This document shows positions 4,388 to 53,767 of a DNA stretch of 64,000 bases, piece by piece. Numbering within the stretch: position 1 is the first letter of the stretch; each line of letters begins with the position of its first letter. A program made the position numbers and the translations under genes. Origin of the DNA: a virus. The stretch lies in IMG/VR virus record IMGVR_UViG_3300031994_000034; one strand, 5' to 3'. Under the pieces are notes generated by a model. That model worked only from the letters and a program-made list of their open reading frames with translations. It was not told the DNA's origin and made no database searches.

Positions 4388-4604
4388 ATTTTTGTTTTTT
4401 CGTGTAATATACATATACCGTATTTCAAGGTCAAGGGCAAACAAACCGAGAGGAAAGAACCACGGCAAAGTTTAGTGACAACTAAACAACAATGCAGCCC
4501 GCGAACAACTATGATGCTCGCATGACATACCCCTCATTTTATGTTTTACAACATATTTTGCTTAAATATTCATTTAATTATTTGCTCAAATGATTAAATA
4601 AGCA

Positions 4605-4612
4605 TACCTTTG
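4605..4612 (+). promoter_or_regulatory. Bacteroidota-type -7 box TACCTTTG
   Basis: Exact TACCTTTG followed by CACCAGCTACAAC, upstream of parA. Confidence 0.55.
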
Positions 4613-4798
4613 CACCAGCTACAACATTCTGACAGCCGAGAGCATATACGGACGTGTCCGGCAACCGCATGGCGGCGGCCCCAAGTTTACTTGACGTGGG
4701 CGCAGCACGGCGGGGCATCAGGCAGAGCCTGTTATGCCGAGGCCAAAGAAATGTCGAACTGAGCGAAACGATGTTCAACATTTTATACGTATATTATT

Positions 4799-5635
4799 AT
4801 GGCAAAAAAACAACGAACACACCAGCTACGTCACATCGTAGCCGTGTCAAACAACAAAGGCGGAGCCGGCAAGACCAGCACCGTCCTGAACCTCGCATCG
4901 GCCATCAGCCGGCGCATCGAAGGTTACAGAGTCCTCGTCATCGACTGTGACCCGCAGCGCAACCTCTCCTACTTCCTCGGTTGGGACGACCGACGCGAAC
5001 TGGATGGCTCCCCCACCCTCTACACCGCCCTGTGCAACGAACAGCAGGGGCTTCCAGTCTATCGTGCCGACAACGGCCTGTACTACACTCCGGCCTCCGT
5101 CAACCTGAACGGTATCGACGCCATTCTTTCCCTGCGTCCCAATCCCAGCAAAGCACTGAAGGAAATCCTTTCAAGACCCATCGACAACCGTACCGATGGT
5201 ACTGTGCTCAGCGATTCTGTCGCTGAGAGTTTCGACTTCATCTTCATCGACACCCAGCCCGCCATGTCGCGCATGACCTATAACGCCCTCTACGCTGCAG
5301 ACGGCTACATCATCCCCACAGAACTGGAAGAGGCCAGCGTCAAGGGTATGGCCAACATCGCCGTAGCCGCAGGTAAGGTGGGAGCCGACACGGGCAACCT
5401 CACCATCCACGGTATCCTTATTACCAAACTCGACGCCAAGCTGCGCTCCGCCAAACTCTATGAGCCGCAAATCCGCCAGTCGTTCCGCGAAACCTTCCAG
5501 ACGGCCATCCGCCGCTCCAAGGACATCATCGAGAGTCAAGCCCTCCGCGAGGACGTGTTCACCACCTACTCCGGCGGTCGTGCTGCAGAAGACTATACCG
5601 CCCTCGCCACCGAGTATCTGAGAAAGTTCGCTTAA
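4799..5635 (+). CDS. parA: ParA/Soj-family partition ATPase
   Basis: Deviant Walker A box VSNNKGGAGKTS, then DCDPQ and the downstream ParA-like layout. Confidence 0.9.
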   Translation: MAKKQRTHQLRHIVAVSNNKGGAGKTSTVLNLASAISRRIEGYRVLVIDCDPQRNLSYFLGWDDRRELDGSPTLYTALCNEQQGLPVYRADNGLYYTPASVNLNGIDAILSLRPNPSKALKEILSRPIDNRTDGTVLSDSVAESFDFIFIDTQPAMSRMTYNALYAADGYIIPTELEEASVKGMANIAVAAGKVGADTGNLTIHGILITKLDAKLRSAKLYEPQIRQSFRETFQTAIRRSKDIIESQALREDVFTTYSGGRAAEDYTALATEYLRKFA

Positions 5636-6019: not shown

Positions 6020-6541
6020 ATGGTAAAGAAAGACAAATTCAAGCAGATGCAGCAGGGTGGGGGAGTGACAGGCTCCTTCGTCGAGTCCCTGGTGCAGGCC
6101 GCCACCACCACAGCGGCCATTCAGCAAAAGGCCGAACAAGAAGCCGCCGCACAGCAGGGGGCCGGGCATCAGATAACCACGAACAATCCGTCAGGCGAAT
6201 CCGATGCCTCCCCGTCTGAGGTCCCCGTCGAGGGGCGGACCACCCTTACCGTCACGCCCGTGGCCGCCCGACAGCCCGGCGGCGAATGGCAATCCATAGA
6301 GCAGCCCAAATTCATGCGCCTGCCTAATCCGCAAATCCCACTCAACGAGTACAATCTGGTTAGCCACTATTGCTCCAGCCTCCCCAATATGACCCGCCAG
6401 GACTTCGTGGAACTTGCCATCGTCGAAAAACTCCACGCCCTCGGGCGACTCTCCGACGAGGAGTTCACCGCTCGACAAACGGAAATACGCAACCGCCCAC
6501 CACGCGGCCAACGGAAAGGAACTAAGCAAACAAGCAGGTAA
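6020..6541 (+). CDS. hypothetical protein, candidate ParA partner by position
   Basis: 173-aa ORF immediately after the repeat field. The C-terminal segment reads MTRQDFVELAIVEKLHALGRLSDEEF. No ParB motif recognised. Confidence 0.55.
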   Translation: MVKKDKFKQMQQGGGVTGSFVESLVQAATTTAAIQQKAEQEAAAQQGAGHQITTNNPSGESDASPSEVPVEGRTTLTVTPVAARQPGGEWQSIEQPKFMRLPNPQIPLNEYNLVSHYCSSLPNMTRQDFVELAIVEKLHALGRLSDEEFTARQTEIRNRPPRGQRKGTKQTSR

Positions 6542-6580
6542 GCATTTAAGTATCTAATTAAAAACCAGCCTCACAAAATC

Positions 6581-7051
6581 ATGCAACAATTCAGCCACGA
6601 CTACACCAAGGTCAGCGAGGCTATGGAAAGCCTCTATTCTGCCACGCGGCTCATCGCCAACGAATGTTACGATGCAGCCCTTGAACGTATTAACGAAGCC
6701 CGCACCATCCTCAGCGAGTACCTCGCCCAGGACAACATGATTCCCGACAACGACGTTGCCGACGGTTGGGTACGCCACAGCGAAGCCCAGGCCGAACTCG
6801 AGGATCTGCGCAGCAGGGTAGGGGACACCCATCGCAGTGCGCCCGACGGTTCGCGGCCCTCAGTAGAAATGGACAGAAAAGAACAAATCATCAAAGAACA
6901 GATTGACGAAGCATGCGTCATGCTTGATATTCTAACAGAATCGATTAAGAAAAAAGCCACCATAGAACCGAACGAAAAAGCCAGCATTAGAGAACTATAT
7001 TACAAGTGCTGGGGTTATATGACACTGGTTGATTCGTCCGATAAATATTAA
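6581..7051 (+). CDS. hypothetical protein
   Basis: 156-aa ORF on the same strand. No family recognised. Confidence 0.55.
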   Translation: MQQFSHDYTKVSEAMESLYSATRLIANECYDAALERINEARTILSEYLAQDNMIPDNDVADGWVRHSEAQAELEDLRSRVGDTHRSAPDGSRPSVEMDRKEQIIKEQIDEACVMLDILTESIKKKATIEPNEKASIRELYYKCWGYMTLVDSSDKY

Positions 7052-16847: not shown

Positions 16848-16884
16848 GTAAGCCTACGGCTTAACGGCCTACCCAGTACAGCCC

Positions 16885-16911
16885 TCACCCCTTAGGGGTG
16901 GGGGTTTTTTG
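16885..16911 (+). terminator. intrinsic terminator
   Basis: TCACCCC-TTAG-GGGTGGGGG followed by TTTTTT. Confidence 0.65.
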
Positions 16912-16914
16912 TTG

Positions 16915-17800
16915 CCGTCCCGATACGTGGGCGGCCACACACGGCCTGGGCGCATAATGCACGCCCACGAATCGCGATCGCGCCCCCGTTCCTTGGGGGT
17001 AGGGTCTGGGGAGGGGGTCGCTGGGTGGACGCCCATAACGGCTTCGGAACGTGGACGGCCACGGCGCGACGGCATGGGCGTCCACCCGTCGCGACATCGT
17101 GGGCGTCCACATCGTCGCTGGTGGGCTTCCATTGTCGGGCTGGGCTTTGGCCGTCCACCTAAACGCGGAGTGGTCGCCCACATGAGGGGAGTGGCAGCCC
17201 CTAAACGCGAAACGACGTGGACGGCCATAACGCATGAACGTGGACTTCCACCTGACGGGAAAATGGACGGCCAGAGGTGCCTAATGGCCGCCCAACGTGG
17301 ACGGGTGTGGACGTCCATTGTGGAGGGTGGTGGTCGCTTATTGGCCGTCCATTGTGGACGGAAGTGGACGCAGGATGTGGGCAGGGGTGGGCGACCATCG
17401 TGGCCTTATCTGGCCGTCCACATTGGACGCGGGTGGTCGCCCATCGTGGACGAAGCTGGACGCTTATTGGCCGCCCATCGTGGGCGGAGGTGGGCGCAGG
17501 GTGTGGGCTTATTGGCCGCCCATCGTGGGCGGAGGTGGGCGCAGGGTGTGGGCTTATCTGGCCGTCCACATTGGATGCGGGTGGTCGCCCATTATGGACG
17601 CGGGTGGTCGCCCATTATGGACGGGAGTTGGACGGCCACCTATCCGCGTGTTGGACCCCCACCTAAAGGCGCAATGGACGGCCACGCGGGTGAAATGGCC
17701 GCCCACCTATTTGCGTTGGCCGCCCACCTGAAGCGCGCATGGACGCAGATGGACGCGCCTTAATTGGGCGCCCACACACGGTGGGCAAGCCTGCTAATCG
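16915..17800. repeat. dense array of TGG(A/G)CG / CG(T/C)CCA motifs, many as 7-3-7 hairpins
   Basis: Hand count of about 28 forward and about 19 inverted copies. Examples: CCGTCCAttgTGGACGG and CCGCCCAtcgTGGGCGG. A perfect 45-bp tandem duplication lies at 17463-17552. Reading frames are open on both strands with no gene signals. Confidence 0.85.
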
Positions 17801-17909
17801 CGCGAGTCCACGCGCAGGAAAAAATGAACTTTTTTTAACATCGTAGATGATTAAAAAAAGTCAATTTTGCGGACCGACCCCAAATTTGGAAAACCGATGT
17901 TCCGTGTCG

Positions 17910-17917
17910 TATATTTG
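17910..17917 (+). promoter_or_regulatory. -7 box TATATTTG
   Basis: Upstream of the ATG at 17976, preceded by the hairpin CTTTTTTTAA..TTAAAAAAAG. Confidence 0.4.
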
Positions 17918-17975: not shown

Positions 17976-18989
17976 ATGGCAACACGTAACGACAAGCGCA
18001 ATGGCGCAAACAACGCAACTCACGAGAACATGAACGCTGCAACGCAGCAAGTTGAGAACCGCAAGAACGGCAAGGCTCCTGCTGCCCCTACGCCCCAGGA
18101 TGGCACCCCCGTACCCGCAAAGCTCGAAGAGCTCGAAGCACGTCTGACCGAGAAGACCACCGCCCTTAACGAAGTTAAGAAGCAGTCGCAGAAGCTGTCC
18201 GAGAAACTCGCTAAAGCGAGAGAGGACGCTGACAACCAGCGTTACTGCGTAGCAGTAAGTCGTCAGAACTTGGGCACGGCTACGGAAGACGACCTCGCCA
18301 TCATCGCCAGCCGTAAGGCTGAGAACAACACGGCCGAGGGTTTGGCAAAGTTCTTTGCCAAGGAGTTCAAGGATAGCGACGAAGTCGCTAAGGCTCGTGA
18401 GGATGTCCGTGCCGAGGAGGGCTCTCTCGCTTCGGCTATAGCCGAAACCACTCGCCAGTGGAACAACGGCTACGCCGTTCTCTACGGCTCTATCGGCATG
18501 AACAAGCAGAGCTTGAAGTCCATCCCAACCCTGCTGAAATCGGCGGGTTTTAACCCCTTCCTCCAAGTTGCCACTGCCGACGGCCTAAAGGCCGCTACGG
18601 TCACTCGGACAGCCGTCCGCAAGAACGGCAAAGCCGTCAAGAAGGACGGCAAGAGGGTGTATAGATACACCCTCAGAGAGCGGACCAAGTGGTCGGCCTA
18701 TGGTCTCTTCGAGACTATAGAGCGCAACTTCCGGATGGCCGATGTGTACACCGAGGACGAACTGAAAGTTCGTATCGAACTCCTCAACACCCAAGTCAGT
18801 GCCCTAAAGGCACTGAAGAAGGCCAAGGAGGATGCCAAGTCGGACGTCCCCGAGGTAGCGGCTAAAGCCGCCGAGAGCGAGAAGGCTCTGGCCGATGCTG
18901 CTGAAGCAGCAGGTAAGGCCGTCAAGGAGAACACCAACGCCACCACCCAGCACACCACCAAAGGTGGTAAGGCCGAGAAGGTCGCTTAA
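17976..18989 (+). CDS. Lys/Ala/Glu-rich coiled-coil protein
   Basis: 337-aa ORF rich in K/A/E heptad-like runs. Same upstream and downstream layout as 16146..16847. Confidence 0.7.
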   Translation: MATRNDKRNGANNATHENMNAATQQVENRKNGKAPAAPTPQDGTPVPAKLEELEARLTEKTTALNEVKKQSQKLSEKLAKAREDADNQRYCVAVSRQNLGTATEDDLAIIASRKAENNTAEGLAKFFAKEFKDSDEVAKAREDVRAEEGSLASAIAETTRQWNNGYAVLYGSIGMNKQSLKSIPTLLKSAGFNPFLQVATADGLKAATVTRTAVRKNGKAVKKDGKRVYRYTLRERTKWSAYGLFETIERNFRMADVYTEDELKVRIELLNTQVSALKALKKAKEDAKSDVPEVAAKAAESEKALADAAEAAGKAVKENTNATTQHTTKGGKAEKVA

Positions 18990-20035
18990 CGGCCTATAGG
19001 CCGCAGGGCTTACCGCAGTCGGTGCGGCTAACCCCAAGGGGTTAGGGTCGGTCCGAATCCGACTTGCCCACAATCCTGCACCCATAACGAGGCGTCTGCC
19101 TCGTTCAGCAGGCCGACGAGTTCCATCGGTTTCCCTTCGGGAAAGAGTGAAACCGAGCCTCCTGCCCCTAAAGGGGAGCCTCTTTAAGAGGTCGAGCCAA
19201 GTGCCCAGGCTGCTCCGACCTAAGGTCGGGTGGTGGATGGCTAAGACCATTGAACCCTATCAGGGTTCACAGTAGCGAAGCTGCTGCCTTGCTCTTTGAA
19301 ATGTTGAACGGCTTGTATCCCTGCGTTCCTTATTGGGCGAGCTTTGTCTGGTAGGGAGTTCCGCCAAGAGTCTATCAAGGTTGGCGGTATTGGGTGAAGT
19401 GTAAACAGGACGATGTGTCTATACGGCACGATACGACGGACGGCCATGCGCGGTAGTGGTGGCATAGGACGAGCCAGTAATGGCTCGGAGTAAAGACCCT
19501 ATCGGCATAAAGCAGCCGGACTAAAATGAGCGTATTGTGGACTGGAGATGCTACTGGACTGCACTTGCGAACTGTCGCAGGGTGGGGTGTCATCGGGAAC
19601 GGTGGCATGAGCGCCATACAAGTACGGACGGTGGGAGAGACCACAGAGTGACTGAGACGCTATACGGCTGGGTAGCGGGTGAACACGAGAGCGGTATGGG
19701 CAGTAGGAGACCTCGGCTATAAGACAGCGGTATGCCAACCTATTGGCGGTAATGAGTAGGCGGCGGGCAGTATTGCAACCCCGCGCTATCAAGTAGGAGC
19801 AATCGGCAATTTTGGACGTTACCAAGAATTGACGGAGGAGGAGTGCGAAATGGCGGAAGTCCGCCTGTCTGCACATAGCCGCACAAGTCTGTGAGGCACG
19901 CGAATCTCAACGCTGGGCACGGGTGTCCGGCGCGACTTGGCTATTGGCAACAAGACAGCGGACGGAATGGGCTATTATGGGCGTGCTATGCATCTGCGTA
20001 GTTTCGCTTGGGGTTCGAGTCCCCACACCCCACAA
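18990..20035 (+). ncRNA. candidate large structured RNA (or highly structured 3' UTR) ending in a tRNA-like T-arm
   Basis: About 1 kb with no credible ORF. It holds a chain of short hairpins with tetraloop-like loops (TTTCCCttcgGGAAA, CCGACCtaaGGTCGG, AACCCCaaGGGGTT, CGAGCCagtaatGGCTCG). It ends with TGGGG-TTCGAGT-CCCCA then CACCCCA. Confidence 0.35.
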
Positions 20036-20137
20036 ACGGAATTTTGAGTCTGCTATGGGCGGTCGTCGTGACGACGTTTGGCTATCTGCACGCCCATATT
20101 GTGCGAACATTATTATCCACACTATAAAGTTAAAACG

Positions 20138-20335
20138 ATGGCAAGAGAAACCACTATCGGGAAAGTACACGAAGGAGACTTTGTGCGCTTTCGTGACACC
20201 GACACGGCTCCCGTGTGGGTGCGCCAACACTACGACCGCAGCAGCCGGACCTATTCGCTCTGCAAGTACGACGATGCTAACCACGAGCGTTTCTGCAAGG
20301 GGACGCAAAAATGTTACGTCGATTTCGACTTCTGA
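20138..20335 (+). CDS. hypothetical protein
   Basis: ATG at 20138 (MARETTIGKVHEG...) in ORF 20078..20335. Confidence 0.55.
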   Translation: MARETTIGKVHEGDFVRFRDTDTAPVWVRQHYDRSSRTYSLCKYDDANHERFCKGTQKCYVDFDF

Positions 20336-22819: not shown

Positions 22820-23770
22820 ATGGCAAACCCAAGAGTGTATGTTGGTACTTATGGCAAGTACAACCGTGGCTCGCTGGCCGGTGGTTGGCTGAGTCTGAAA
22901 GAATGCAAGGACTATCAGGACTTCCTGCGGAAATGTGGCAGACTGCATCGCGGGGAGCACGACCCTGAGTTTATGATACAGGACTGCGAGGACTTCCCAG
23001 ACGGGCTGAATTGCGGCGAGTGGCTATCGGAGCAGGATTTCAAGGATGTTATCGCCGCCTGCGAGGAGGAAGAGCGGCAGGAGTCTGTAGCCGACCGGTT
23101 GCGGGTCGCCCTGCGTGAACGTCTGAAGGCCGACGGCAAGGCTGTCCCTGCTGATGACGAGCAGACGCTGCTGGAGGAATACATGAAGGAGTACGAGAAG
23201 GTGTGGCCCGACGACAAGTCGATGCTGGACTATTGCCGCAAGGAGTTCTCGGGTGCCGTGCGCCTGCAGAACGGCGGCATCCTCTATTTCGAGAAGCCGA
23301 GCATCAAGACGGAGTTTTGCTTCGGCTATTCCACCTGCGGACAGGGCGCAGAGTATGACGAGGCGAACAATGCGGCGCGGTCGGCGAGGACGGAGGGCTA
23401 CTTCCTGCACGCCAACCTGGACGAGATGGACGAGCGCATCCGTGCGCTGGAACTGAACTGTTGCTATCCCGAAGGGGAGTGGAATGGCACCTACGACAAC
23501 CTAACGTGGTACATTCAGCGGAAGAGCTATTGCAGCCAAAAGGAGGAACTGAACTTGTTCGAGTTCCGCGCCTGGCGCGAATACGACGTGGAGAACGAGC
23601 CGTGGCGATACACGCCGGGCAGTTACGAGAAGATGTCGGACGCCGACCGCATGACTATCCTCGGCGGCATGAAGCGTGAGCGAGAGAAGTTCGAGAAGCG
23701 GCTGCGTGCCTATCTGAAACGCTACGGCACCACGAAGCTACGCACATGGACCTACTGGCTGGACGAATAG
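22820..23770 (+). CDS. ardA: protein with ArdA-like antirestriction N-terminal domain
   Basis: RVYVGTYGKYNRGSLAGGWLSL...EHDPEFMIQDCEDFP matches the ArdA N-domain pattern (xYVxxLxxYNxGxLxGxW ... E(E/D)xxIxDxExxP). Confidence 0.6.
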   Translation: MANPRVYVGTYGKYNRGSLAGGWLSLKECKDYQDFLRKCGRLHRGEHDPEFMIQDCEDFPDGLNCGEWLSEQDFKDVIAACEEEERQESVADRLRVALRERLKADGKAVPADDEQTLLEEYMKEYEKVWPDDKSMLDYCRKEFSGAVRLQNGGILYFEKPSIKTEFCFGYSTCGQGAEYDEANNAARSARTEGYFLHANLDEMDERIRALELNCCYPEGEWNGTYDNLTWYIQRKSYCSQKEELNLFEFRAWREYDVENEPWRYTPGSYEKMSDADRMTILGGMKREREKFEKRLRAYLKRYGTTKLRTWTYWLDE

Positions 23771-25237: not shown

Positions 25238-26830
25238 ATGGACAAGATATTATCAATGTTTTTCGAGGCAGGGCGGTGGGAATACGCCATTGCCAAGGGT
25301 GTGGGTAAGGACGTTCCGAAGAACGTGTTGTACCAACTATGCAAGCCAGAAGTGCGGATGCAGATGTACGAGGCTATCCGCACGGGACAGTACGAGATTG
25401 CACCGCCACATACGGCACTTATCCCGAAGGATACGCCAGGCGAGTTCCGCACGGTGTATGTGAACGAGGCAGCTGACCGTGTGCTGCTATCCATTGCCAA
25501 CGACCTGCTGTTTGAGTTGATGCCAGACAGGGTGCATCCGCGTTGCAAGTCGTACTTGAAAGGTGTTGGTTGTGGGAGGATAGTGCAGGAAGTCAGTACG
25601 GCCATCCTTGCGGCAAAACCGCAAGGTACAGAGAAATTGGGCTGGAAGAGCGACCTGAGTAAGTATTTCGACTCGGTACCTATCCGATTCATAGATGCTG
25701 CCTTCGACATGGTAGAGGAACGGCACGGACATTCGGCCCTGATCGATGTACTGCGAAAGTATTACCATGCCGACCTCTATTTCACTCCCGATGGGGTGCT
25801 GGAAAGCAAGTACCAAAGTCTGAAGCAGGGTTGCTCGGTGGCATCGTGGCTGGCCGACGTCTTACTCTATCACATCGACGAGCGACTGACTAAGTTGAAC
25901 GGCTATTACGTCCGCTATTCGGACGATATGCTCTTTATCGGGCCGGATGCAGAGCAGGCTATGCAGGTCCTCACGGAGGAACTGGCAGCTATGGAAATGC
26001 GGCTCAACCCTAAGAAGGTGGAGTGGCTGGACGAGCGGCACTGGTTTAAGTTCCTGGGCTTCTCTATCCGTGGCAAGGACATCAGTCTGAGCAGTACGAG
26101 AATCAAGACGTTTCAGAGGGAGATTGAGAACAGGACAGTGAAAAGTGGAAAATCTAAGTTCACAATCACTTCGGCTCTCAACTCCGTGAACCGCTATCTG
26201 TATCGTGGCGACGGACAGGGGCATTCGTGGGCAACGCAAGTGCTGCCTATCGTGAACGTAAGACAGGACATCGCCACGCTGAACCTGTTCGTGATGGACT
26301 GTCTGCGGGCTGCCTGTACGGGCAAGACGAAAGTGGGCGGTCTGGGCTATGACAAGCAGGGTAGGGACGGCTGCATCGTCCGTGGCAGGGGCAGGAATGT
26401 GAGTGCCAACCGCAGGAAGACGGGCGACGACATCGGCGGCTATCTGTCGCTGAGCTGTATGCAGAACGCGATGCGGACGAGCAAGGCGGCGTATGACTCG
26501 CTGGTGCGCTCACTCAACTTCTCGCAGAAAACGCAGAAAGCGCAGAAATCTGATGCTACGAGCATCGAGGAACTGGAGGCGGCGTATGCGGTGTATAAGC
26601 ACTCCATTCCGAGCGAAAGGACGATGGGGCGTGTGCCTCGCTTCTATGCGCTGCCCGAAAGCGAGTTGAGCAATGACGATATGCTCTATGGCGTTCCCCG
26701 TGAACAGGCGGAGCGCGAATTGGAGAAGGTGCTGGCAGGGTTCACGATGCCTGAAGGGGCAGGGTGGTTCTGGCAGAGCGAGAACGACAAGGACTTGGTG
26801 GTGCTGCGCTCATGGTGCAGTGCCGCATAG
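25238..26830 (+). CDS. reverse transcriptase (unclassified prokaryotic RT)
   Basis: RT motifs in order: IPKDTPGEFRTVYV (1), ADRVLLSIANDLL (2), KSDLSKYFDSVP (3), LKQGCSVASWLADVLL (4), YVRYSDDMLFIG with YSDD at 25916-25927 (5), MRLNPKKV (6), FKFLGFSI (7). A 230-aa C-terminal extension has no recognisable domain. Confidence 0.9.
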   Translation: MDKILSMFFEAGRWEYAIAKGVGKDVPKNVLYQLCKPEVRMQMYEAIRTGQYEIAPPHTALIPKDTPGEFRTVYVNEAADRVLLSIANDLLFELMPDRVHPRCKSYLKGVGCGRIVQEVSTAILAAKPQGTEKLGWKSDLSKYFDSVPIRFIDAAFDMVEERHGHSALIDVLRKYYHADLYFTPDGVLESKYQSLKQGCSVASWLADVLLYHIDERLTKLNGYYVRYSDDMLFIGPDAEQAMQVLTEELAAMEMRLNPKKVEWLDERHWFKFLGFSIRGKDISLSSTRIKTFQREIENRTVKSGKSKFTITSALNSVNRYLYRGDGQGHSWATQVLPIVNVRQDIATLNLFVMDCLRAACTGKTKVGGLGYDKQGRDGCIVRGRGRNVSANRRKTGDDIGGYLSLSCMQNAMRTSKAAYDSLVRSLNFSQKTQKAQKSDATSIEELEAAYAVYKHSIPSERTMGRVPRFYALPESELSNDDMLYGVPREQAERELEKVLAGFTMPEGAGWFWQSENDKDLVVLRSWCSAA

Positions 26831-26879
26831 ACTATTCGCCACCGCACAGTGGCTATCCCTGCGTAGGGCGGCGCATCTT

Positions 26880-27255
26880 TAAGGTGCCGGCGTTTCAAAC
26901 ACGGGTTTCACTGGAGCCCATCTGGCAGATTTCCCAGATTGGCTCGGTTCAGCCCGTGCCACGCCGGCACTTATCATCGACGGAATAAAGACGATGTGCC
27001 AGGCCGCAAGGCGCAGGGAAGAGGGTAGCGCATACTGCCTATACAGACTATCAGAACGGCACAATTCAGCAATTCGAGCTATTAAGTCTTCTTTCACGTC
27101 GAACCCTTCGGGTCCGCAGGTACGGCGCTTCGCCGCTTCCGCTGGCTTCGCAGCCAGTACCTGCGGAACCGGGCGGGTCGCGTTCAGAAGACCAAAGCTC
27201 GAATCTTCATCGACACCATAAAGCGCTATGCCGCGCCGTGAGGATGGACTGAAAA
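26880..27255 (+). ncRNA. structured RNA module A (RT-adjacent)
   Basis: Nested helices GTGCCGGCG(26884)/CGCCGGCAC(26962), CACGGG/CCCGTG, GAGCC-ATCTGG/CCAGAT-GGCTC. Long-range TTCGAGCT..GTCTTC / GAAGAC..AGCTCGAA enclosing CCGCAGGTAC/GTACCTGCGG. No ORF. Confidence 0.6.
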
Positions 27256-27291
27256 ACAAAATTATCAACCATTTCAAAACTTAAAATCATT

Positions 27292-28380
27292 ATGAAGACT
27301 ATCAACAACGACGTGAACAACAACATGAGTAACAACAACGAGACAAAGGTGATGTGTCCTGTATGCGGCACGGAGTTCGCCATCGGCGAGCACGAACACA
27401 GAGTGAAGAACGCTGTCAGCATCGGCAAGGACAGTGGGCTGGGTGAGGTCTATCTGCCTGTGAGCAAGCGAGGCGACGCGCTGAAGGCTGCGGGCGTAGA
27501 TACGACGAAGTATTTCTCCATCAACCTGCCTACGGGTGGCAGTCAACTGATGAAGATGACGGACGGGGGTGTGCCTGTGGCAGTGACGGACGACGACCCT
27601 ATCATGGCGGCTATCCGCACACAGGGCACGGTACCTAACCGCTCGCTGTTCCGCCGCTGGGTGATGAGTCAGGTGTTCCACGGCTTGCAGTGTTCGGGCG
27701 GTTTCACGCAGTGGCTGAAGTGGCACGGCTATAAGTATCAGTGGGAGATGCTGGTGGAGGAACTGCGTGTGCAGGCCAAGCTCTACGGCAAGGACATGGA
27801 GAACTATGACGCCCGCAACCGTTGGTTTAACCGTGAACTGGCTGTGACGATGGCGAAGGACTATGTGGAGCAGCTGCGCAAGGATGCACACAAACGTCCG
27901 ACGCACAAGTGCAAGGGTGTGCCCTACATCCGCTTCTCGAACGAGAACTATTTCGTGAGCGACATCGAGAAGAAATTGATTACTCCCGTACATACACGTA
28001 TCGTCGCCATCGAGAGGGCAAAGAATCCTCAGCAACTCTACGATGCCGTGCGTAACTTCTGGTGGAAAATGCCAAGCGGCAGTCAGTATTACGACCAGTG
28101 CGCCGCATGGAAGGATGCCTATAAGGGCATGGGTGCCTATGCCACGATGCAGAACCTGCTGCGCTTCCACGGCTGCGGTTTTCCCAACGGCAACCAGTTC
28201 TATCATGCCCGTCTGTCCAACCTGCAAATGCTGGAGAATGCTGCTAAGGCATACGCCAATGGTGAGGGCTGGCGTCTGTTCGGTCTGATGAAGCAGATGC
28301 TGGAGATGAACGGCATCGACATCAAGGCAAAGATGCAGGAGTGGGCGCAGGCAAAGAAGGCTAAGAACCTGCGCCGATAA
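27292..28380 (+). CDS. hypothetical protein with N-terminal CxxC zinc-ribbon-like motif
   Basis: 362-aa ORF (MKTINNDVNNN..VMCPVCGTEFAIGEHEH...) bracketed by the RNA modules. No family recognised. Confidence 0.65.
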   Translation: MKTINNDVNNNMSNNNETKVMCPVCGTEFAIGEHEHRVKNAVSIGKDSGLGEVYLPVSKRGDALKAAGVDTTKYFSINLPTGGSQLMKMTDGGVPVAVTDDDPIMAAIRTQGTVPNRSLFRRWVMSQVFHGLQCSGGFTQWLKWHGYKYQWEMLVEELRVQAKLYGKDMENYDARNRWFNRELAVTMAKDYVEQLRKDAHKRPTHKCKGVPYIRFSNENYFVSDIEKKLITPVHTRIVAIERAKNPQQLYDAVRNFWWKMPSGSQYYDQCAAWKDAYKGMGAYATMQNLLRFHGCGFPNGNQFYHARLSNLQMLENAAKAYANGEGWRLFGLMKQMLEMNGIDIKAKMQEWAQAKKAKNLRR

Positions 28381-28434
28381 GCCATACACGAAAAGGCCGT
28401 GCGACCTATCCGCTGTGAGACGTGCAGACATTTT

Positions 28435-28800
28435 AGTCGATCAGGATTTCAACCTGTACGTTCATCTCGTGAGGTCCGACATCCATATTGGAATGCGGAC
28501 CTCCACGAGATGACCTTACAGGCCATCCTGATTGTCTCATCGACACGATACAGACACGCACCATGCACGGAGCACAGCGACTATACACCCCAGCACAGGG
28601 GACGGGCACTGCAAGACAGACGCAATTTAGTGAACAGTAGATAAGGGAAGGCGGCCTGCATCCGTCGTATCCCTATTGTTATACGACGGCTGGAACCGCC
28701 TTCGTATCTCACTGTTGACATCGAACGAGTAAAGACGATGTGCCGAGTCTGTGAGCAGTGACCTATCAGGGAGCGCACCCTATCATGCCGCAAGACATCC
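28435..28800 (+). ncRNA. structured RNA module B-I
   Basis: GATCAGGAT(28439)/ATCCTGAT(28525) enclosing CCTGTA/TACAGG and CATCTCGTGAGGTCCG/CGGACCTCCACGAGATG. Then the ATCGAC..ATACAG signature and the hairpin CCGTCGTAT/ATACGACGG. Confidence 0.55.
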
Positions 28801-28809
28801 ACGCTTTTC

Positions 28810-29105
28810 AAAGCGCCGGTTCACAGTTTGCCTGGGTTCCACTGGGATATTCCCAGTTCCCCAGGTAAGTTGCACCGGCACTTATCGAACCTATACAGCC
28901 ATGCGCCGAGGATGGTGAGCGACAACGGGAACGGCTGCGCATACAGCCTATGAGGTTTGCAGAGCGGAACTTTCAAACGACATCAGACTTAGATAAGCTC
29001 GCCTCAGTTAGGGCGGCCAGCCTACCCGCTGGCGGCCTTAACGAGGAGAGCTCCCTCTGATGCCCATATCAACCGAATAAAGCACTATGCCAGTCCGCGA
29101 GGCAG
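28810..29105 (+). ncRNA. structured RNA module B-II
   Basis: GCCGGT/ACCGGC, CCTGGG/CCCAGG and ACTGGG/CCCAGT replace the module A helices with compensatory changes. A 15-bp hairpin GTTAGGGCGGCCAGC/GCTGGCGGCCTTAAC has a + strand G-U pair. Confidence 0.6.
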
Positions 29106-29151
29106 ACGAAAAAAGAAGGTACAACTTAAAACAAAAATACGCAATAAAATT

Positions 29152-35576: not shown

Positions 35577-37301
35577 ATGAACTTATTTACGAATAACCCC
35601 GATTTCTATCCTACGCCCAAGGAGGTTATCGGGCAGATGATGATGGGCGAAGAAGTGACTGGCAAAATCATTCTGGAACCGAGTGCCGGCAGCGGAAACA
35701 TCGTTGACTGGCTGAAGGAGAATGGCGCAGCGGAGGTGATTGCCTGCGAGAACGACCCGCATTGCAGGAAGCTATTGGCTGACAAGTGTCGGTTGGTGGC
35801 AGACGACTTCCTGACGGTGACGAGCGAGCAGGTGAGTCACGTGGATATGATTGTGATGAACCCGCCCTTCTCGAAGGGCGTCGAGCACATCCTTCACGCT
35901 TTCGAGATTGCGCCTCCGGGATGTACGGTGATTGCGCTTTGCAACGCTGACAGTGTGAGTGAACATCACAGCTACAGCCGCAACCAAATCCTGTACGAGA
36001 ACATCCAGCTCTATGGCTACACGGAGTGTCTGGGCAAGGTGTTTGAGACCGCCGAGCGCAAGACGAGCGTGGTGGTGTCGCTGGTGAAGCTCTATAAGGA
36101 GGGCACGGGCGAAGAGGAATGGCAAGACTATATTTTCAGCCAGCAGGACGAGGACGCACTGAACATGAACGAGACAGAGGGACTGGTGCAGTACAATGTG
36201 GTGCGCGAAATGGTGAACCGCTACATGAGTGCCGTGAAGATGTTCGACGAGGTGATGGAGATGACACAGCGCATCAACGAGACGGCACGTGCTACGGATG
36301 GAAAGTATGATGCACCACCTATTGAGTTTCGTGCCGTAGAGTCTCGCGATGGTCGTGCCACTACCGTCACTCGTGAGGAGTACAAGAAGCAGCTGAAGAA
36401 ATACTATTGGCGCACTATCTTCCGGATGCTGAAGATGGGGAAGTACGAGACACAATCGCTGCGTGAGCAGATGAACCGCTTTGTGGAGAAACAGGTGAAC
36501 GTGCCTTTCACGATGGGTAACATCTACAGGGTGCTCGACATGATTGTGCAGACGCACGGCCAGCGTATGCACAAGGCACTGGTGGAAGCCTTCGAGAATA
36601 TCTGTTCTTTCAGTGCTGAGAACTCCACGGCTGGCGAGAAGTGGAAGACGAATGCGAACTACATGGTTAACCGCAAGTTCATCATCCCCTATATGTGCGA
36701 CGGCTACGACTGGGAATATTCTGGGGAAGCCTGGAGTATGGCCCGCAAGAGGGTAGGGCGCGAGTATGTGGAAGTCAGCGGTTCCAGTGTAGAGGAGATG
36801 TACGATGTCTGCAAGGCGCTGTGCTACATGACTGGGCGCGACTACAACGAGATTCCTTCACTGCCTGGTGGGTATGGTGGCCGGCGTGTCGCATGGAACA
36901 CTTGGTTTATCTGGGGCTTCTTTCGCTGCAAGGCGTTCAAGAAGGGCACTATGCACTTCGAGTTCCTGGACGAGGACGTGTGGTATAAGTTCAATGCCGA
37001 AGTTGCCAAGACAAAGGGCTGGACACTGCCCAAGAAGAGCGACGGTTGGCAGCAGTCTCCGTCGAAACTCATTCCCCGCATCGACAAGGGCGACCTATTC
37101 CGCTGCAAGAAGGATGTGAAATACAGTGATGGAACAATGGCGTACCGCAAGGATATGGTGTACCGCTCCGAACGGGAACATGGTTATTCCTTGGGTTTCA
37201 TTACCAACGAGAGCGGAAACGCAAACCACGCATGGCCTATCTATCAGGACAAAGGCAAAGGTGTGGACGACTGGCGCGACTGGTTCGAGAAAGTAGCATG
37301 A
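35577..37301 (+). CDS. N6-adenine DNA methyltransferase with large C-terminal domain
   Basis: Motif I ILEPSAGSGNIVDWL and motif IV MNPPFS. 574 aa. Confidence 0.8.
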   Translation: MNLFTNNPDFYPTPKEVIGQMMMGEEVTGKIILEPSAGSGNIVDWLKENGAAEVIACENDPHCRKLLADKCRLVADDFLTVTSEQVSHVDMIVMNPPFSKGVEHILHAFEIAPPGCTVIALCNADSVSEHHSYSRNQILYENIQLYGYTECLGKVFETAERKTSVVVSLVKLYKEGTGEEEWQDYIFSQQDEDALNMNETEGLVQYNVVREMVNRYMSAVKMFDEVMEMTQRINETARATDGKYDAPPIEFRAVESRDGRATTVTREEYKKQLKKYYWRTIFRMLKMGKYETQSLREQMNRFVEKQVNVPFTMGNIYRVLDMIVQTHGQRMHKALVEAFENICSFSAENSTAGEKWKTNANYMVNRKFIIPYMCDGYDWEYSGEAWSMARKRVGREYVEVSGSSVEEMYDVCKALCYMTGRDYNEIPSLPGGYGGRRVAWNTWFIWGFFRCKAFKKGTMHFEFLDEDVWYKFNAEVAKTKGWTLPKKSDGWQQSPSKLIPRIDKGDLFRCKKDVKYSDGTMAYRKDMVYRSEREHGYSLGFITNESGNANHAWPIYQDKGKGVDDWRDWFEKVA

Positions 37302-44995: not shown

Positions 44996-45099
44996 ATAAG
45001 GCTTTGGTATGAAAAAGGAATAGCGTACACGCTACGCCTGTCGTGGAATGGCAGTAGGCTGTGCGTATTGGAATAAGAAACCTTTGCGCACAGCCACTT

Positions 45100-45182
45100 G
45101 GGAGCGAAAGCCTGTAAATGGTGCAACAGGCATTAGTAAAACTTGCCGGTGAGCGAGGGTTCGAGTCCCTACACTCCCACCA
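45100..45182 (+). other. tRNA-like element (acceptor plus T-arm plus encoded CCA) with non-canonical interior
   Basis: GGGAGCG...AGGG-TTCGAGT-CCCT-(A)CACTCCC-A-CCA. The 3' 25 nt are homologous to 20009-20033. I could not fold a standard D-arm or anticodon arm. Confidence 0.4.
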
Positions 45183-51967: not shown

Positions 51968-53767
51968 ATGGAACAAATAACCCTACTTTACATCGACCTC
52001 TTCTGTGGCGCGGGCGGCACCAGCAGCGGCGTGGAGTATGCCCGCGTGGACGGCAGAAAGTGCGCCAAGGTCATTGCCTGTGTCAACCACGACAAGAATG
52101 CTATCCTCTCGCACCAGGCCAATCACCCGCACACGCTCCACTTCACCGAGGACATCCGCACGCTGGAACTGTCGCCGATGGTGACACACCTGCGGAAGAT
52201 GAAGGCGAGATACCCAAAGGCTCGTGTGGTACTATGGGCCTCACTGGAGTGTACGAACTTCTCAAAGGCCAAGGGTGGTCAGCCCCGCGATGCCGACAGC
52301 CGCACACTGGCAGATCACCTGTTCCGCTACATTGAGGCACTCGACGTTGACTACATCCAGATAGAGAACGTGGAGGAGTTTATGTGCTGGGGAGCGCTCG
52401 ATGAGAACGGTAAACCCGTGAGCAAGGACCAGGGCAGCGACTACCTGCGGTGGGTGCGCAAGGTGCAGGAATATGGCTACGACTTCGACTGGCGCATCCT
52501 GAATGCTGCCGACTTCGGAGCATACACCTCGCGCAAACGCTACTTCGGGCAGTTTGCCCGCCGTGGGCTGCCCATTGTCTTCCCCGAACAGACCTACGCG
52601 AAGAATGGCGACGAGGGAGGTCTCTTCAAAATGTACCACAAGTGGCGTGCCGTCCGCGACGTGCTCGACCTCGACGACGACGGCGAGAGCATCTTCACCC
52701 GCAAGAAGCCACTCTGCGAGAAGACGCTGGAACGCATCTACGCCGGCCTGGTGAAATTTGTGGCAGGAGGAAAGAAACAGTGCGAGGCGTGGATTCTGAA
52801 ATACAACTCCATGAACCAGCAGAACCACCACAACGCACCCTCCCTCGATGAGCCGTGCCCCACGGTGGCGTGCCAGAACCGCCTCGGACTGGTGAAGTGT
52901 CAGTTCCTCTCGAAGCAGTTTAGCGGCGACCCTGACAGCAAGAACATCGACATCGAGCAGCCTGCCGGCACCGTGACCACCATCGACCATCATGCACTGG
53001 TGTCATCAAGGTTCCTTACGGAGTATTTTGGTGGTGCTGACCACAACCATAGCATCGAGGAACCTGCGACCACTGTGACGACCAAGGAACGTCACGCCTT
53101 TGTGACGGCATACTACGGGAACGGCTACAACTCGTCGATTGACAGTCCTGCACCCACCGTGACCACGAAGGACAGGATTTCTCTCGTGAGCACGAAGTTC
53201 ATCGCCAACGAATACAGCGGCGGCGGTCAGCTCTCCAGCATTGAACAGCCGAACCCCGCCGTTCTCACTACGCCCAAGCAGAAAATTGTTACCTGCAAGC
53301 CGTGGTTGATGAGCACCGACTTCAATAATGTCGGAAGTTCTGTTGATGGGCCGGCACCAGTTATAACAGCATGTCACAAATATCATTACCTGATGAATCC
53401 CTATTCATTCAAGAGCGACGGCGGCAGCATCGAGAAACCTTGCTTTACGCTGATAGCGAGGATGGATAAGATGCCGCCCTACCTCATTACCACCAAGGAG
53501 GGCGAGGTGGGCATCGCCATCTACGAGAGCGACAGCCTCTGGACGCGAAAGGTGAAGGAGTTTATGGCTGCTTATGGCATCATCGACATTTGTATGCGTA
53601 TGCTGAACATCGGCGAACTGAAACGCATCATGGGCTTCCCCACCGACTACGTTCTCGTAGGTACCCAAGCCGAGCAAAAGAAATACATCGGCAACGCCGT
53701 GGAGGTGAACATGAGCCGCGTGCTCTGCGAGGCACTGGCCCGGAAACTTGAAAGTATTAACAAATAA
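51968..53767 (+). CDS. DNA cytosine-5 methyltransferase with seven tandem TRD-like repeats
   Basis: Motif I DLFCGAGGTSSG, motif IV-like SLECTNFS, motif VI ENV, motif VIII SRKRYFG, motif IX LNIGELKRIMGFP, motif X GNAVEV. Between VIII and IX there are seven (I/V/L)(D/E)xPxxx(V/I/L) units. Confidence 0.85.
   Translation: MEQITLLYIDLFCGAGGTSSGVEYARVDGRKCAKVIACVNHDKNAILSHQANHPHTLHFTEDIRTLELSPMVTHLRKMKARYPKARVVLWASLECTNFSKAKGGQPRDADSRTLADHLFRYIEALDVDYIQIENVEEFMCWGALDENGKPVSKDQGSDYLRWVRKVQEYGYDFDWRILNAADFGAYTSRKRYFGQFARRGLPIVFPEQTYAKNGDEGGLFKMYHKWRAVRDVLDLDDDGESIFTRKKPLCEKTLERIYAGLVKFVAGGKKQCEAWILKYNSMNQQNHHNAPSLDEPCPTVACQNRLGLVKCQFLSKQFSGDPDSKNIDIEQPAGTVTTIDHHALVSSRFLTEYFGGADHNHSIEEPATTVTTKERHAFVTAYYGNGYNSSIDSPAPTVTTKDRISLVSTKFIANEYSGGGQLSSIEQPNPAVLTTPKQKIVTCKPWLMSTDFNNVGSSVDGPAPVITACHKYHYLMNPYSFKSDGGSIEKPCFTLIARMDKMPPYLITTKEGEVGIAIYESDSLWTRKVKEFMAAYGIIDICMRMLNIGELKRIMGFPTDYVLVGTQAEQKKYIGNAVEVNMSRVLCEALARKLESINK

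Follow-up and report, generated by a model that had tools for sequence, protein, structure and literature searches.

To our knowledge, only a few large structured RNAs of unknown biochemistry have been described, and GOLLD, ROOL, OLE, raiA and HEARO have each opened a line of research. Punctuation of transcripts by transfer RNA (tRNA) structures is used by mitochondria and at the MALAT1 locus. UG27 reverse transcriptase (RT) systems comprise arrays of ~150-nucleotide (nt) non-coding RNA (ncRNA) units, in which reverse transcription begins at the AUC of a AUCNNNNNNNUANAG motif (preprint 10.64898/2026.09.22.753630); the units measure ~135-167 nt, with AUCNNNNNNNUANAG located 3' of a central hairpin and UUYA located 5' of it, and the arrays sit between or beside the RT and accessory genes. 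Phages bearing UG27 infect Bacteroidota and Bacillota (PMC9226505; preprint 10.64898/2026.09.22.753630). Here we analyse a stretch of 64,000 nt from the IMG/VR virus record IMGVR_UViG_3300031994_000034 (hereafter, the window), in which positions 18990-20035, directly downstream of the gene for a 337-amino acid (aa) protein, very probably specify a functional structured RNA on the + strand. The element is a modular RNA of ~1.03 kilobases (kb), and coordinates given without a locus label refer to the window.

The 337-aa gene ends in a TAA stop codon at 18987-18989 and the next credible gene starts at the ATG at 20138 (65 aa, ending at 20335). An initial annotation, made from the letters of the window, had seen no credible open reading frame (ORF) after the stop at 18989, and the comparison of homologues agrees with this view, as no conserved ORF is found on either strand within 18990-20035. 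The longest open frames of the gap vary in strand, frame and length from locus to locus, and its translated similarity is spread over all six frames, jumping frame within single pairs of sequences. A hidden protein gene was considered and rejected, for the open frames of up to 135-175 codons on the - strand shift frame between relatives, and their length is accounted for by the purine-rich composition of the + strand. The 190-aa gene called in the relative L031 is a read-through artefact, running across the 3' tRNA-like module into a real downstream ORF. A split gene or an intron was also discarded, given that relatives keep the upstream stop codon and that the next gene has a start of its own.

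The initial annotation had made its proposal depend on conservation in related elements, and such conservation is found: ~19 distinct metagenomic loci carry the element, each directly 3' of the 337-aa gene. These loci were drawn from IMG/VR, JGI, ENA, Logan and one metagenome-assembled genome (MAG) of GTDB; 10 of the 16 loci from a pattern scan of metagenomes were chance matches in unrelated coding DNA and were dropped. A gene-free gap of 600-1300 nt follows the 337-aa gene in all loci examined, and that of the window shares 72% DNA identity over 800 nt with the gap of L001, where the flanking protein is 58% identical. No counterpart was found in GenBank phages by DNA or protein, nor in PLSDB plasmids with the 5' 310 nt as DNA query only. 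The GTDB match is a Bacteroidaceae bin from water-buffalo rumen (contig JAFZZI010000005.1), other loci lie on IMGVR_UViG_3300033463_000023, 3300028805_000074 and Ga0310695_10032789, and the carriers are a clade of large rumen and gut Bacteroidota phages with contigs of ~110-250 kb.

The whole region folds with -417.6 kcal/mol on the + strand versus -357 kcal/mol on the - strand. For the first 297 nt, the z score of the minimum free energy is -3.97 on the + strand and -3.11 on the - strand, and the chain of short G+C hairpins that had been described for the region is borne out for the 5' 300 nt. In the structure and alignment of the core, there are 71 G.U cells versus 20 A.C cells, a count somewhat biased by the prediction of the structure on the + strand. 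The element is assigned to the + strand on the basis of this G.U excess, the orientation of the UUCGANU T-loop and the direction of the genes, all neighbouring genes being on the + strand. It is the lack of a conserved ORF, the conservation of the DNA and the many compensatory changes on the + strand, taken together, that argue for a structured RNA.

At gathering score, Rfam 15 finds nothing in the 64-kb window. The Rfam scan proposed in the initial annotation returns no match to GOLLD, ROOL, transfer-messenger RNA (tmRNA), RNase P, HEARO or raiA; within 18800-20300, no match to GOLLD, ROOL, OLE, HEARO, raiA, RNase P RNA or group I/II introns is obtained at E <= 10, and four relatives scanned against those families give none at E <= 5. 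A permissive scan of 18800-20300 yields only two sub-threshold fragments, viz., a tRNA-Sec-like one at 18999-19069 (21 bits versus a gathering score of 47) and a T-arm fragment at 20009-20066 that resembles the permuted tmRNA model (beta_tmRNA; 8.5 bits versus 84). With ARAGORN, the 64-kb window yields neither a tRNA nor a tmRNA, and in 16 loci the program never calls the tRNA-like modules, though it finds real tRNA-Tyr and tRNA-Met elsewhere there. We therefore treat the element, which is absent from Rfam 15, as a putative new family of large phage RNA. The large structured non-coding RNA with a genuine tRNA-like 3' module, as first proposed, is upheld; the tRNA-likeness of the 3' end stands, but the idea that it is confined to that end does not, for a complete cloverleaf at 19006-19070 had been overlooked. 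The parts of the RNA, including the 5' and 3' tRNA-like modules (TLS1 and TLS2), are as follows.

18990-19003, + strand: leading hairpin CGGCC-UAUA-GGCCG, between the stop codon and TLS1, without a U-run
19006-19070, + strand: TLS1, anticodon-less tRNA-like cloverleaf, predicted from its isolated fold and covariation
19006-19009 with 19066-19069, + strand: TLS1 acceptor, GGGC/GCCC
19013-19027, + strand: TLS1 D-like arm, with GG in the loop
19028-19045, + strand: TLS1 third arm, with a short loop replacing the anticodon loop
19047-19063, + strand: TLS1 T-arm, GUCGG-UCCGAAU-CCGAC
19070, + strand: TLS1 discriminator A, followed by C
19071-19299, + strand: universal core domain, ~230 nt with about nine further helices, ending in GCUCUUUGA
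19270-19299, + strand: last core hairpin followed by CCUUGCUCUUUGA, terminator-like by terminator scan
19300-19831, + strand: middle domain, specific to one subclade ('type A')
19832-19845, + strand: purine tract ACGGAGGAGGAGUG, whose last six bases GGAGUG (19840-19845) form the 5' acceptor strand of TLS2
19846-20008, + strand: variable insertion in TLS2, ~160 nt in the window
19850-19894, + strand: short ATG frame in the TLS2 insertion, not conserved
19970-19984, + strand: conserved motif GGGCUAUUAUGGGCG in the TLS2 insertion
19987-20002, + strand: anticodon-arm-like hairpin CUAUGC-AUCU-GCGUAG
20009-20025, + strand: TLS2 T-arm, UGGGG-UUCGAGU-CCCCA
20026-20031, + strand: TLS2 acceptor 3' strand, CACCCC
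20032, + strand: TLS2 discriminator A, followed by C (20033)

The most conserved and most tRNA-like part of the element lies at its 5' end. A hairpin occupies the position of 18990-19003 in all relatives, though with different stems (CGGCU/GCCG, CUACC/GGUAG, GGCAGCC/GGCUGC, GACUGC/GCAGUC). When TLS1 is folded alone, the four-way cloverleaf makes up 80% of the ensemble, with a z score of -3.36. Among 15 relatives, its T stem undergoes G-C, C-G, U-A and A-U exchanges, pair 4 of its acceptor switches from C-G to U-A, and GG is present in the D-like loop of all 15; the T-loop reads U(U/C)CGANU and the top of the acceptor is formed by G1-C72, G2-C71 and G3-C70. The third arm has a 7-8-bp stem closed by a 2-4-nt loop, and the anticodon loop is absent in all relatives. 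Thus, TLS1 has the cloverleaf with acceptor, D-arm and T-arm of a canonical tRNA, without the 7-nt anticodon loop on a 5-bp stem. In both TLS1 and TLS2 the discriminator A is followed by C. The 3' end of TLS1 in L034 (4084-4095) reads GCCC-ACCA, i.e. the CCA is encoded, and the other relatives read ACAA, ACTA, ACAC or ACTC after the TLS1 stem.

The core domain is present in every relative, and harbors the invariant single-stranded motifs GGGAAAGAG, GAGCCAAGUGCC and GGGUGGUGG. In its alignment (A3, 17 sequences), 94% of the cells are paired, and 24 of 50 pairs are changed on both sides versus 12.6 +/- 1.8 in shuffles (0 of 500) and 4-9 in controls with slid partners. Its last hairpin (helix 10) covaries, and CUCUUUGA is kept in all relatives, L027 reading CUCAUUGA. 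This hairpin together with CUCUUUGA at 19270-19299 might yield a short form of the RNA of ~295 nt, which would account for only the 5' part being universal.

The position of the middle domain is occupied in other subclades by a different sequence or a small ORF, and six relatives have an extra module of ~270 nt that is absent from the window. The alignment of the middle domain (A6, nine sequences) has 112 predicted pairs, 25 of them compensatory, along with long invariant stretches. RNAalifold additionally proposes a helix of CUCUUU (19292-19297) with GAGGAG (19835-19840), adjoining the TLS2 acceptor; this helix may form, its bases being invariant or changed on one side only, and if it does, the middle domain would branch out of a compact core.

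At the 3' end, the T-arm, the tail and the TGGGGTG noted in the initial annotation are present (TGGGG-TTCGAGT-CCCCA at 20009-20025, CACCCC-AC at 20026-20033 and TGGGGTG at 19583-19589), and a closure of a 450-nt RNA by pairing of TGGGGTG with the tail (20026-20032) had been suggested as possible. This pairing is not conserved. The helix is a perfect 8-bp complement in the window only and is not kept in L036, L001, L004 or the other relatives; L036, for example, has GGGGCG at the homologous site, which is unable to pair with its own tail. The closure at 19583-19589 is therefore a coincidence specific to the window, and the partner of the tail is instead found at 19840-19845, where the predicted closure gives a TLS2 module of ~195 nt. 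Among 12 relatives with a 3' T-arm, 10 have a perfect 6-bp partner of the tail at the homologous site (unique in seven), and the window (GGAGUG/CACCCC) and L012 have one A.C mismatch there. L036, the nearest relative to share an identical T-arm with the window, has a tail CACUUC and a perfect GGAGUG/CACUUC helix. The two acceptor strands of TLS2 change in concert, and those of further relatives are as follows.

L033: 5' strand GGAGAG, 3' tail CUCUCU
L003: 5' strand GGUGAG, 3' tail CUCACU
L028: 5' strand AGGGUG, 3' tail CACUCU
L024: 5' strand GGAGCG, 3' tail CGCUCC
L026: 5' strand GGAGCA, 3' tail UGCUCC

In the TLS2 alignment (A4, 10 sequences), 99.1% of the cells are paired and 8 of 11 pairs are changed on both sides, versus 3.7 +/- 1.1 in shuffles and 1-2 with slid partners. 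The insertion enclosed by TLS2 shrinks from ~160 nt in the window through ~100 nt (L004) to ~37 nt (L003). The whole L003 module is of tRNA size (69-76 nt) and adopts the cloverleaf in 83% of the ensemble when folded alone. The purine tract ACGGAGGAGGAG preceding the insertion is invariant in type A. In most relatives the element ends with TLS2, but since several loci have no 3' T-arm, TLS2 is not essential to the core.

The best explanation overall, to which we give an even chance, is that a co-transcribed RNA is excised or stabilised by host tRNA-processing enzymes at its tRNA-like modules; a role of the modules themselves as processing or stability signals is plausible at slightly less than even chance. 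The mimics keep the parts of a tRNA that are read by processing enzymes, i.e. the top of the acceptor, the discriminator, the T-loop and the elbow, without the part read by the ribosome, and both TLS1 and TLS2 are anticodon-less mimics within a longer element with intact acceptor, T-arm and elbow. The upstream features on which the explanation draws are these.

17885-17917, + strand: candidate promoter of Bacteroidota type, TTTG-N21-TATATTTG, 59 nt upstream of the start codon (ATG) of the 337-aa gene
17976-18989, + strand: 337-aa gene, mostly coiled coil, which always precedes the RNA

The site at 17885-17917, which is also flagged as sigma-70-like, is the likely start of a transcript running into the RNA. 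Bipartite TTTG-N17-23-TAnnTTTG sites number 8 in the window versus 0.8 expected, a tenfold enrichment that supports a Bacteroidota host. No TAnnTTTG occurs on the + strand between 17917 and 21892, and as the promoter at 17885-17917 has no successor on that strand before 21892, the gene and the RNA would most simply be one transcription unit, beside a probable replication origin. The hairpin after the stop codon has no U-run, which along with the distribution of promoters suggests co-transcription.

On this explanation, the RNA would be transcribed with the 337-aa gene from the promoter at 17885-17917, with no terminator between gene and RNA. Each acceptor stem would be cut on its 5' side by host RNase P, and the cut behind the discriminator would be made by RNase Z or by RNase E together with exonucleases. 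Cleavage at TLS1 would leave an upstream mRNA that ends in the hairpin 18990-19003, protecting its 3' end, and would free a core RNA with defined, tRNA-like, and hence nuclease-resistant ends, a shorter form of ~295 nt being possible at 19270-19299. The product set free would be a stable ncRNA of the phage, belonging to the large 'ornate' class.

Several points weigh against this explanation. The base 5' of G1 of TLS1 is A, and bacterial RNase P prefers U at this position. U.U or U.C mismatches are frequent in the lower part of the TLS1 acceptor, and the TLS2 acceptor has only 6 pairs, with an A.C mismatch in the window. There is no 3' T-arm in L002, L010, L021, L027 and L034, and none was found in L025, in which the purine tract is kept. 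The alignment of TLS2 is partly circular, as the 5' partner of three divergent sequences was picked by complementarity, and the sequences are related, so that the counts of covariation exceed the true number of independent changes. Transcription, the sites of cleavage and the stability of the RNA are all predictions. Finally, processing at the tRNA-like modules leaves the task of the universal 230-nt core unexplained, though no rival explains the invariant core better.

A bolder form of the explanation, tentative and in our judgement rather unlikely, is that a DNA phage uses tRNA punctuation: mimics in an early transcript would let RNase P and RNase Z carve out an ornate RNA of ~0.3-1 kb, whose core acts near the origin, the task of the core being, for example, RNA-only assembly or the formation of a ribonucleoprotein with the upstream coiled-coil protein. 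If this is true, the element would represent a new class of large functional phage RNA and a processing strategy so far undescribed for non-tRNA transcripts of bacteriophages. Processing at the modules, if it takes place, would by itself mean that a bacterial virus uses host tRNA maturation for a product that is not a tRNA. The anatomy of the element is unusually readable, for two mimics bracket a universal core and exchangeable modules, and this gives testable cleavage sites and RNA ends.

That the mimics act as a tRNA decoy or sponge is improbable. On this view they would titrate a host factor that reads the elbow and the acceptor (for example a defence toxin that targets tRNA, a nucleotidyltransferase, an enzyme of modification or RNase P), and the remainder of the RNA would be a scaffold. 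The T-loop, the GG in the D-like loop and the G-C-rich top of the acceptor are strictly kept and the anticodon loop is absent throughout the relatives, as a decoy would have it; the early-looking gene block also holds ArdA, DNA methyltransferases and the UG27 RT, and a third orphan tRNA-like element with ACCA is present at 45099-45182. However, no candidate target is known, just three tRNA-like elements occur in 64 kb, and a decoy has no need of the invariant 230-nt core, which is the most conserved part.

Still less probable is a translation-related, tmRNA-like RNA, in which TLS2 would be CCA-tailed or charged and would interact with the ribosome. The topology of TLS2, an acceptor and T-arm enclosing an insertion, is that of such an RNA and its pairing covaries; a Shine-Dalgarno-like GGAGGAGGAG tract and an ATG-led short frame stand before and in TLS2, the purine tract being the one invariant in type A, and the T-arm gives weak partial matches to tmRNA models. 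Yet ARAGORN and the Rfam tmRNA models do not recognise TLS2, and it has no G3.U70 alanine identity pair, the third pair being A-U, U-A or G.U (A.C in the window). The short frame that follows the purine tract differs among relatives both in its length and in its reading frame, with 14 codons in the window, 27 in L001, 13 in L035 and read-through in L004 and L031, and the 69-76-nt module of L003 has no room for a tag frame.

The region could also act as single-stranded DNA (ssDNA), either as a priming or replication signal by the putative origin or as a single-strand promoter like those of plasmid leading regions, a reading that we consider very improbable. It lies 1.3 kb from an iteron-like array and close to the minimum of GC skew, its neighbours (ArdA and methylases, and PcfJ/PcfK in L024) resemble plasmid leading regions, and its - strand also folds well (z -3.11). 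Nevertheless, the cloverleaf geometry, the GG of the D-loops and the conserved T-loops of sequence U(U/C)CGANU are features of RNA, and we know of no role for such tRNA-type features in ssDNA; G.U prevails over A.C (71 versus 20), and the ssi and Frpo elements known to us are far shorter than 1 kb.

There is only a slight chance that the modules are the remnant of a decaying phage tRNA cluster with no present function, or that the 3' T-arm and tail are an attP fragment of a host tRNA gene. Both modules are clearly tRNA-derived, TLS2 of L003 is a near-complete cloverleaf, and relatives have real tRNA genes within a few kb of the element. On the other hand, the helices are maintained by compensatory changes in phages in which the flanking protein is down to 49% identity, and the most conserved part is the non-tRNA core; as for attP, the tail that follows the 3' T-arm shows covariation with an internal partner, which is not expected of a core copied from a host tRNA.

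The window holds a complete UG27 system at 25238-29140, which fits the arrays described in the preprint (10.64898/2026.09.22.753630) and includes the following genes.

25238-26830: UG27 RT (691 bits), whose C-terminus matches RTas346
27292-28380: UG27 accessory gene, matching RTas337

The motif ATCN7TANAG occurs at six sites (26976, 27209, 28539, 28720, 28884 and 29068), which are the 'RT modules' whose signatures had been thought to recur in the element. The three motifs quoted for this likeness are present, at 19504-19519, 19716-19737 and 19428-19444, but the likeness is not above chance by blastn, the UG27 motif or a hidden Markov model (HMM) of the sites. AUCN7UANAG has no occurrence inside 18990-20035, on the + strand the HMM of the six sites recovers just those six and gives no match in that region, and a blastn self-comparison of the window reveals no similarity between the element and the RT modules. 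The exclusion was made by motif, HMM and blastn, a MAFFT alignment of the six divergent units being too poor for a covariance model. The quoted motifs differ at homologous positions of relatives (e.g. ATCGGCATAAAG versus ACCACGCAGAAAG), and ArdA and about ten small genes lie between the end of the RNA at 20033 and the start of the RT at 25238. That the element is an additional template RNA for the RT 5 kb downstream is thus barely credible, even if the UG27 system is complete and additional ncRNA units are reported from intergenic regions next to some UG27 loci, with some units escaping the authors' model (preprint 10.64898/2026.09.22.753630), for the unit motif, the site HMM (+ strand) and blastn are all negative in 18990-20035, the element has no 150-nt periodicity, the quoted motifs are not kept in relatives and some ten genes intervene. 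The RNA element and the UG27 arrays appear to be different elements, an exclusion that is strong but not absolute, and for annotation the 1-kb gap after the 337-aa gene should be kept distinct from the arrays. The Bacteroidaceae MAG and the Bacteroidota-type promoters are consistent with the published hosts of UG27 phages.

The 337-aa protein has 99 homologues of 45-97% identity, all metagenomic, and no match to Pfam, PHROG or PDB profiles. Its AlphaFold model consists mostly of coiled coil and has low confidence, with a pLDDT of 63. Upstream of its gene, the gene-free region 16848-17870 is probably a replication origin or a partition site, for it contains an iteron-like array, in which 14 of the 15 TGGACGNCC sites of the window fall within 17026-17683 in both orientations versus 2 expected, two 98-nt repeats at 17285-17508 and an AT-rich stretch at 17820-17870. 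The array is near the minimum of the cumulative GC skew (~15 kb) and a flip in gene orientation. A 284-aa 'ORF' at 16909-17763 is probably no gene, because relatives are gene-free there. Ahead of many other genes of the window there are instead tandem repeats of heptamers or nonamers (AATTCAT, CTGTGCTAT, CTGATTACT), perhaps regulatory signals specific to the phage.

One more conserved feature lies downstream of the RNA, ahead of the next gene.

20053-20099, + strand: inverted-repeat element CTATGGGCG-(GTCGTCGTGACGAC)-...-CGCCCATA

Its identity in relatives is 79-93%, also in loci with an extra ORF between it and TLS2. It is probably a separate regulatory site and may bind a protein or serve as a promoter specific to the phage. 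The half-site GCTAT(N)ATGGGCG recurs inside the RNA at 19970-19984, with a weaker copy near 19330. Small ORFs are inserted in the gap, at positions that differ, in L001 (8225-8598), L031 (5012-5385), L002 (7591-7875) and L027 (~4574-4865); an ORF starting MKETCKSLKSLIDAAYSHG... follows TLS2 in L001 and L031, and in L002, L027 and L034 the 3' part gives way to an ORF starting MATLKDLC....

The gene block after the RNA encodes ArdA, a DUF4942 methyltransferase and a C5 cytosine methylase (22820-23770, 35577-37301 and 51968-53767), and L024 has PcfK and PcfJ at 6295-6999. ArdA, methylases and PcfJ-PcfK are genes typically found together in the leading, anti-restriction region of a conjugative element, although IMG/VR assigns these contigs to viruses. 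The third orphan tRNA-like element (45099-45182), upstream of a primase-like gene, has an encoded ACCA end, an acceptor GGGAGCG/CACUCCC and a T-arm AGGG-UUCGAGU-CCCU, and is preceded by a long hairpin at 45058-45096. It is not called by ARAGORN, its best Rfam score is 16 bits (tRNA-Sec) and the z score of its fold is only -0.47.

Among known systems, the UG27 arrays are found in the same phage genomes and are likewise long structured intergenic RNAs that are hard to detect by sequence similarity. They are, however, tandem ~150-nt units with AUCN7UANAG and UUYA beside RT genes, whereas the element has neither the unit motif nor the periodicity, shares no tRNA-like parts with them and is 5 kb away. 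GOLLD and ROOL resemble it in being large (0.3-1 kb) RNAs with many short covarying helices, a phage or prophage location and an unknown biochemical function, and in their association with tRNA-like sequence; ROOL is also known from the rumen. The element differs from them in that neither Rfam model matches it even at E <= 10, and in its modular build of a universal 5' core with exchangeable 3' modules. Furthermore, GOLLD and ROOL often adjoin tRNA genes, whereas here anticodon-less mimics are built into the RNA. They have been reported to form oligomeric cages (PMC12286853), while the element is known here from sequence alone.

TLS2 is comparable to tmRNA in that its acceptor and T-arm are formed by distant 5' and 3' strands enclosing a large insertion, and in its T-loop UUCGANU. 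In contrast to tmRNA, it has no G3.U70, conserved tag frame or encoded CCA, and its insertion ranges from ~37 to 160 nt. The 3' tRNA-like structures of plant RNA viruses (e.g. turnip yellow mosaic virus) and the Neurospora Mauriceville retroplasmid are, like the element, RNAs of viruses or mobile elements with a tRNA mimic. Such mimics are recognised by host tRNA enzymes and are 3'-terminal, CCA-ended, and aminoacylated or used as sites of RT initiation; those of the element are internal to the RNA of a DNA phage, with the CCA encoded in one relative only (L034).

The remaining parallel is with mascRNA of MALAT1, the 3' ends of MEN-beta and the 't-elements' of plant mitochondria. The Rfam model mascRNA-menRNA has no match to TLS1 or TLS2 and matches the window only at 45156-45170, with 12.9 bits versus a gathering score of 42.5. 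In these systems, as in the element, an anticodon-less cloverleaf lies in a longer transcript, its acceptor, T-arm and elbow being conserved and its anticodon not, and the mimic directly follows a structure able to protect the new upstream 3' end. They are eukaryotic or organellar, whereas the element belongs to a phage, in which two such modules bracket a structured RNA that would be released by the cleavage postulated here.

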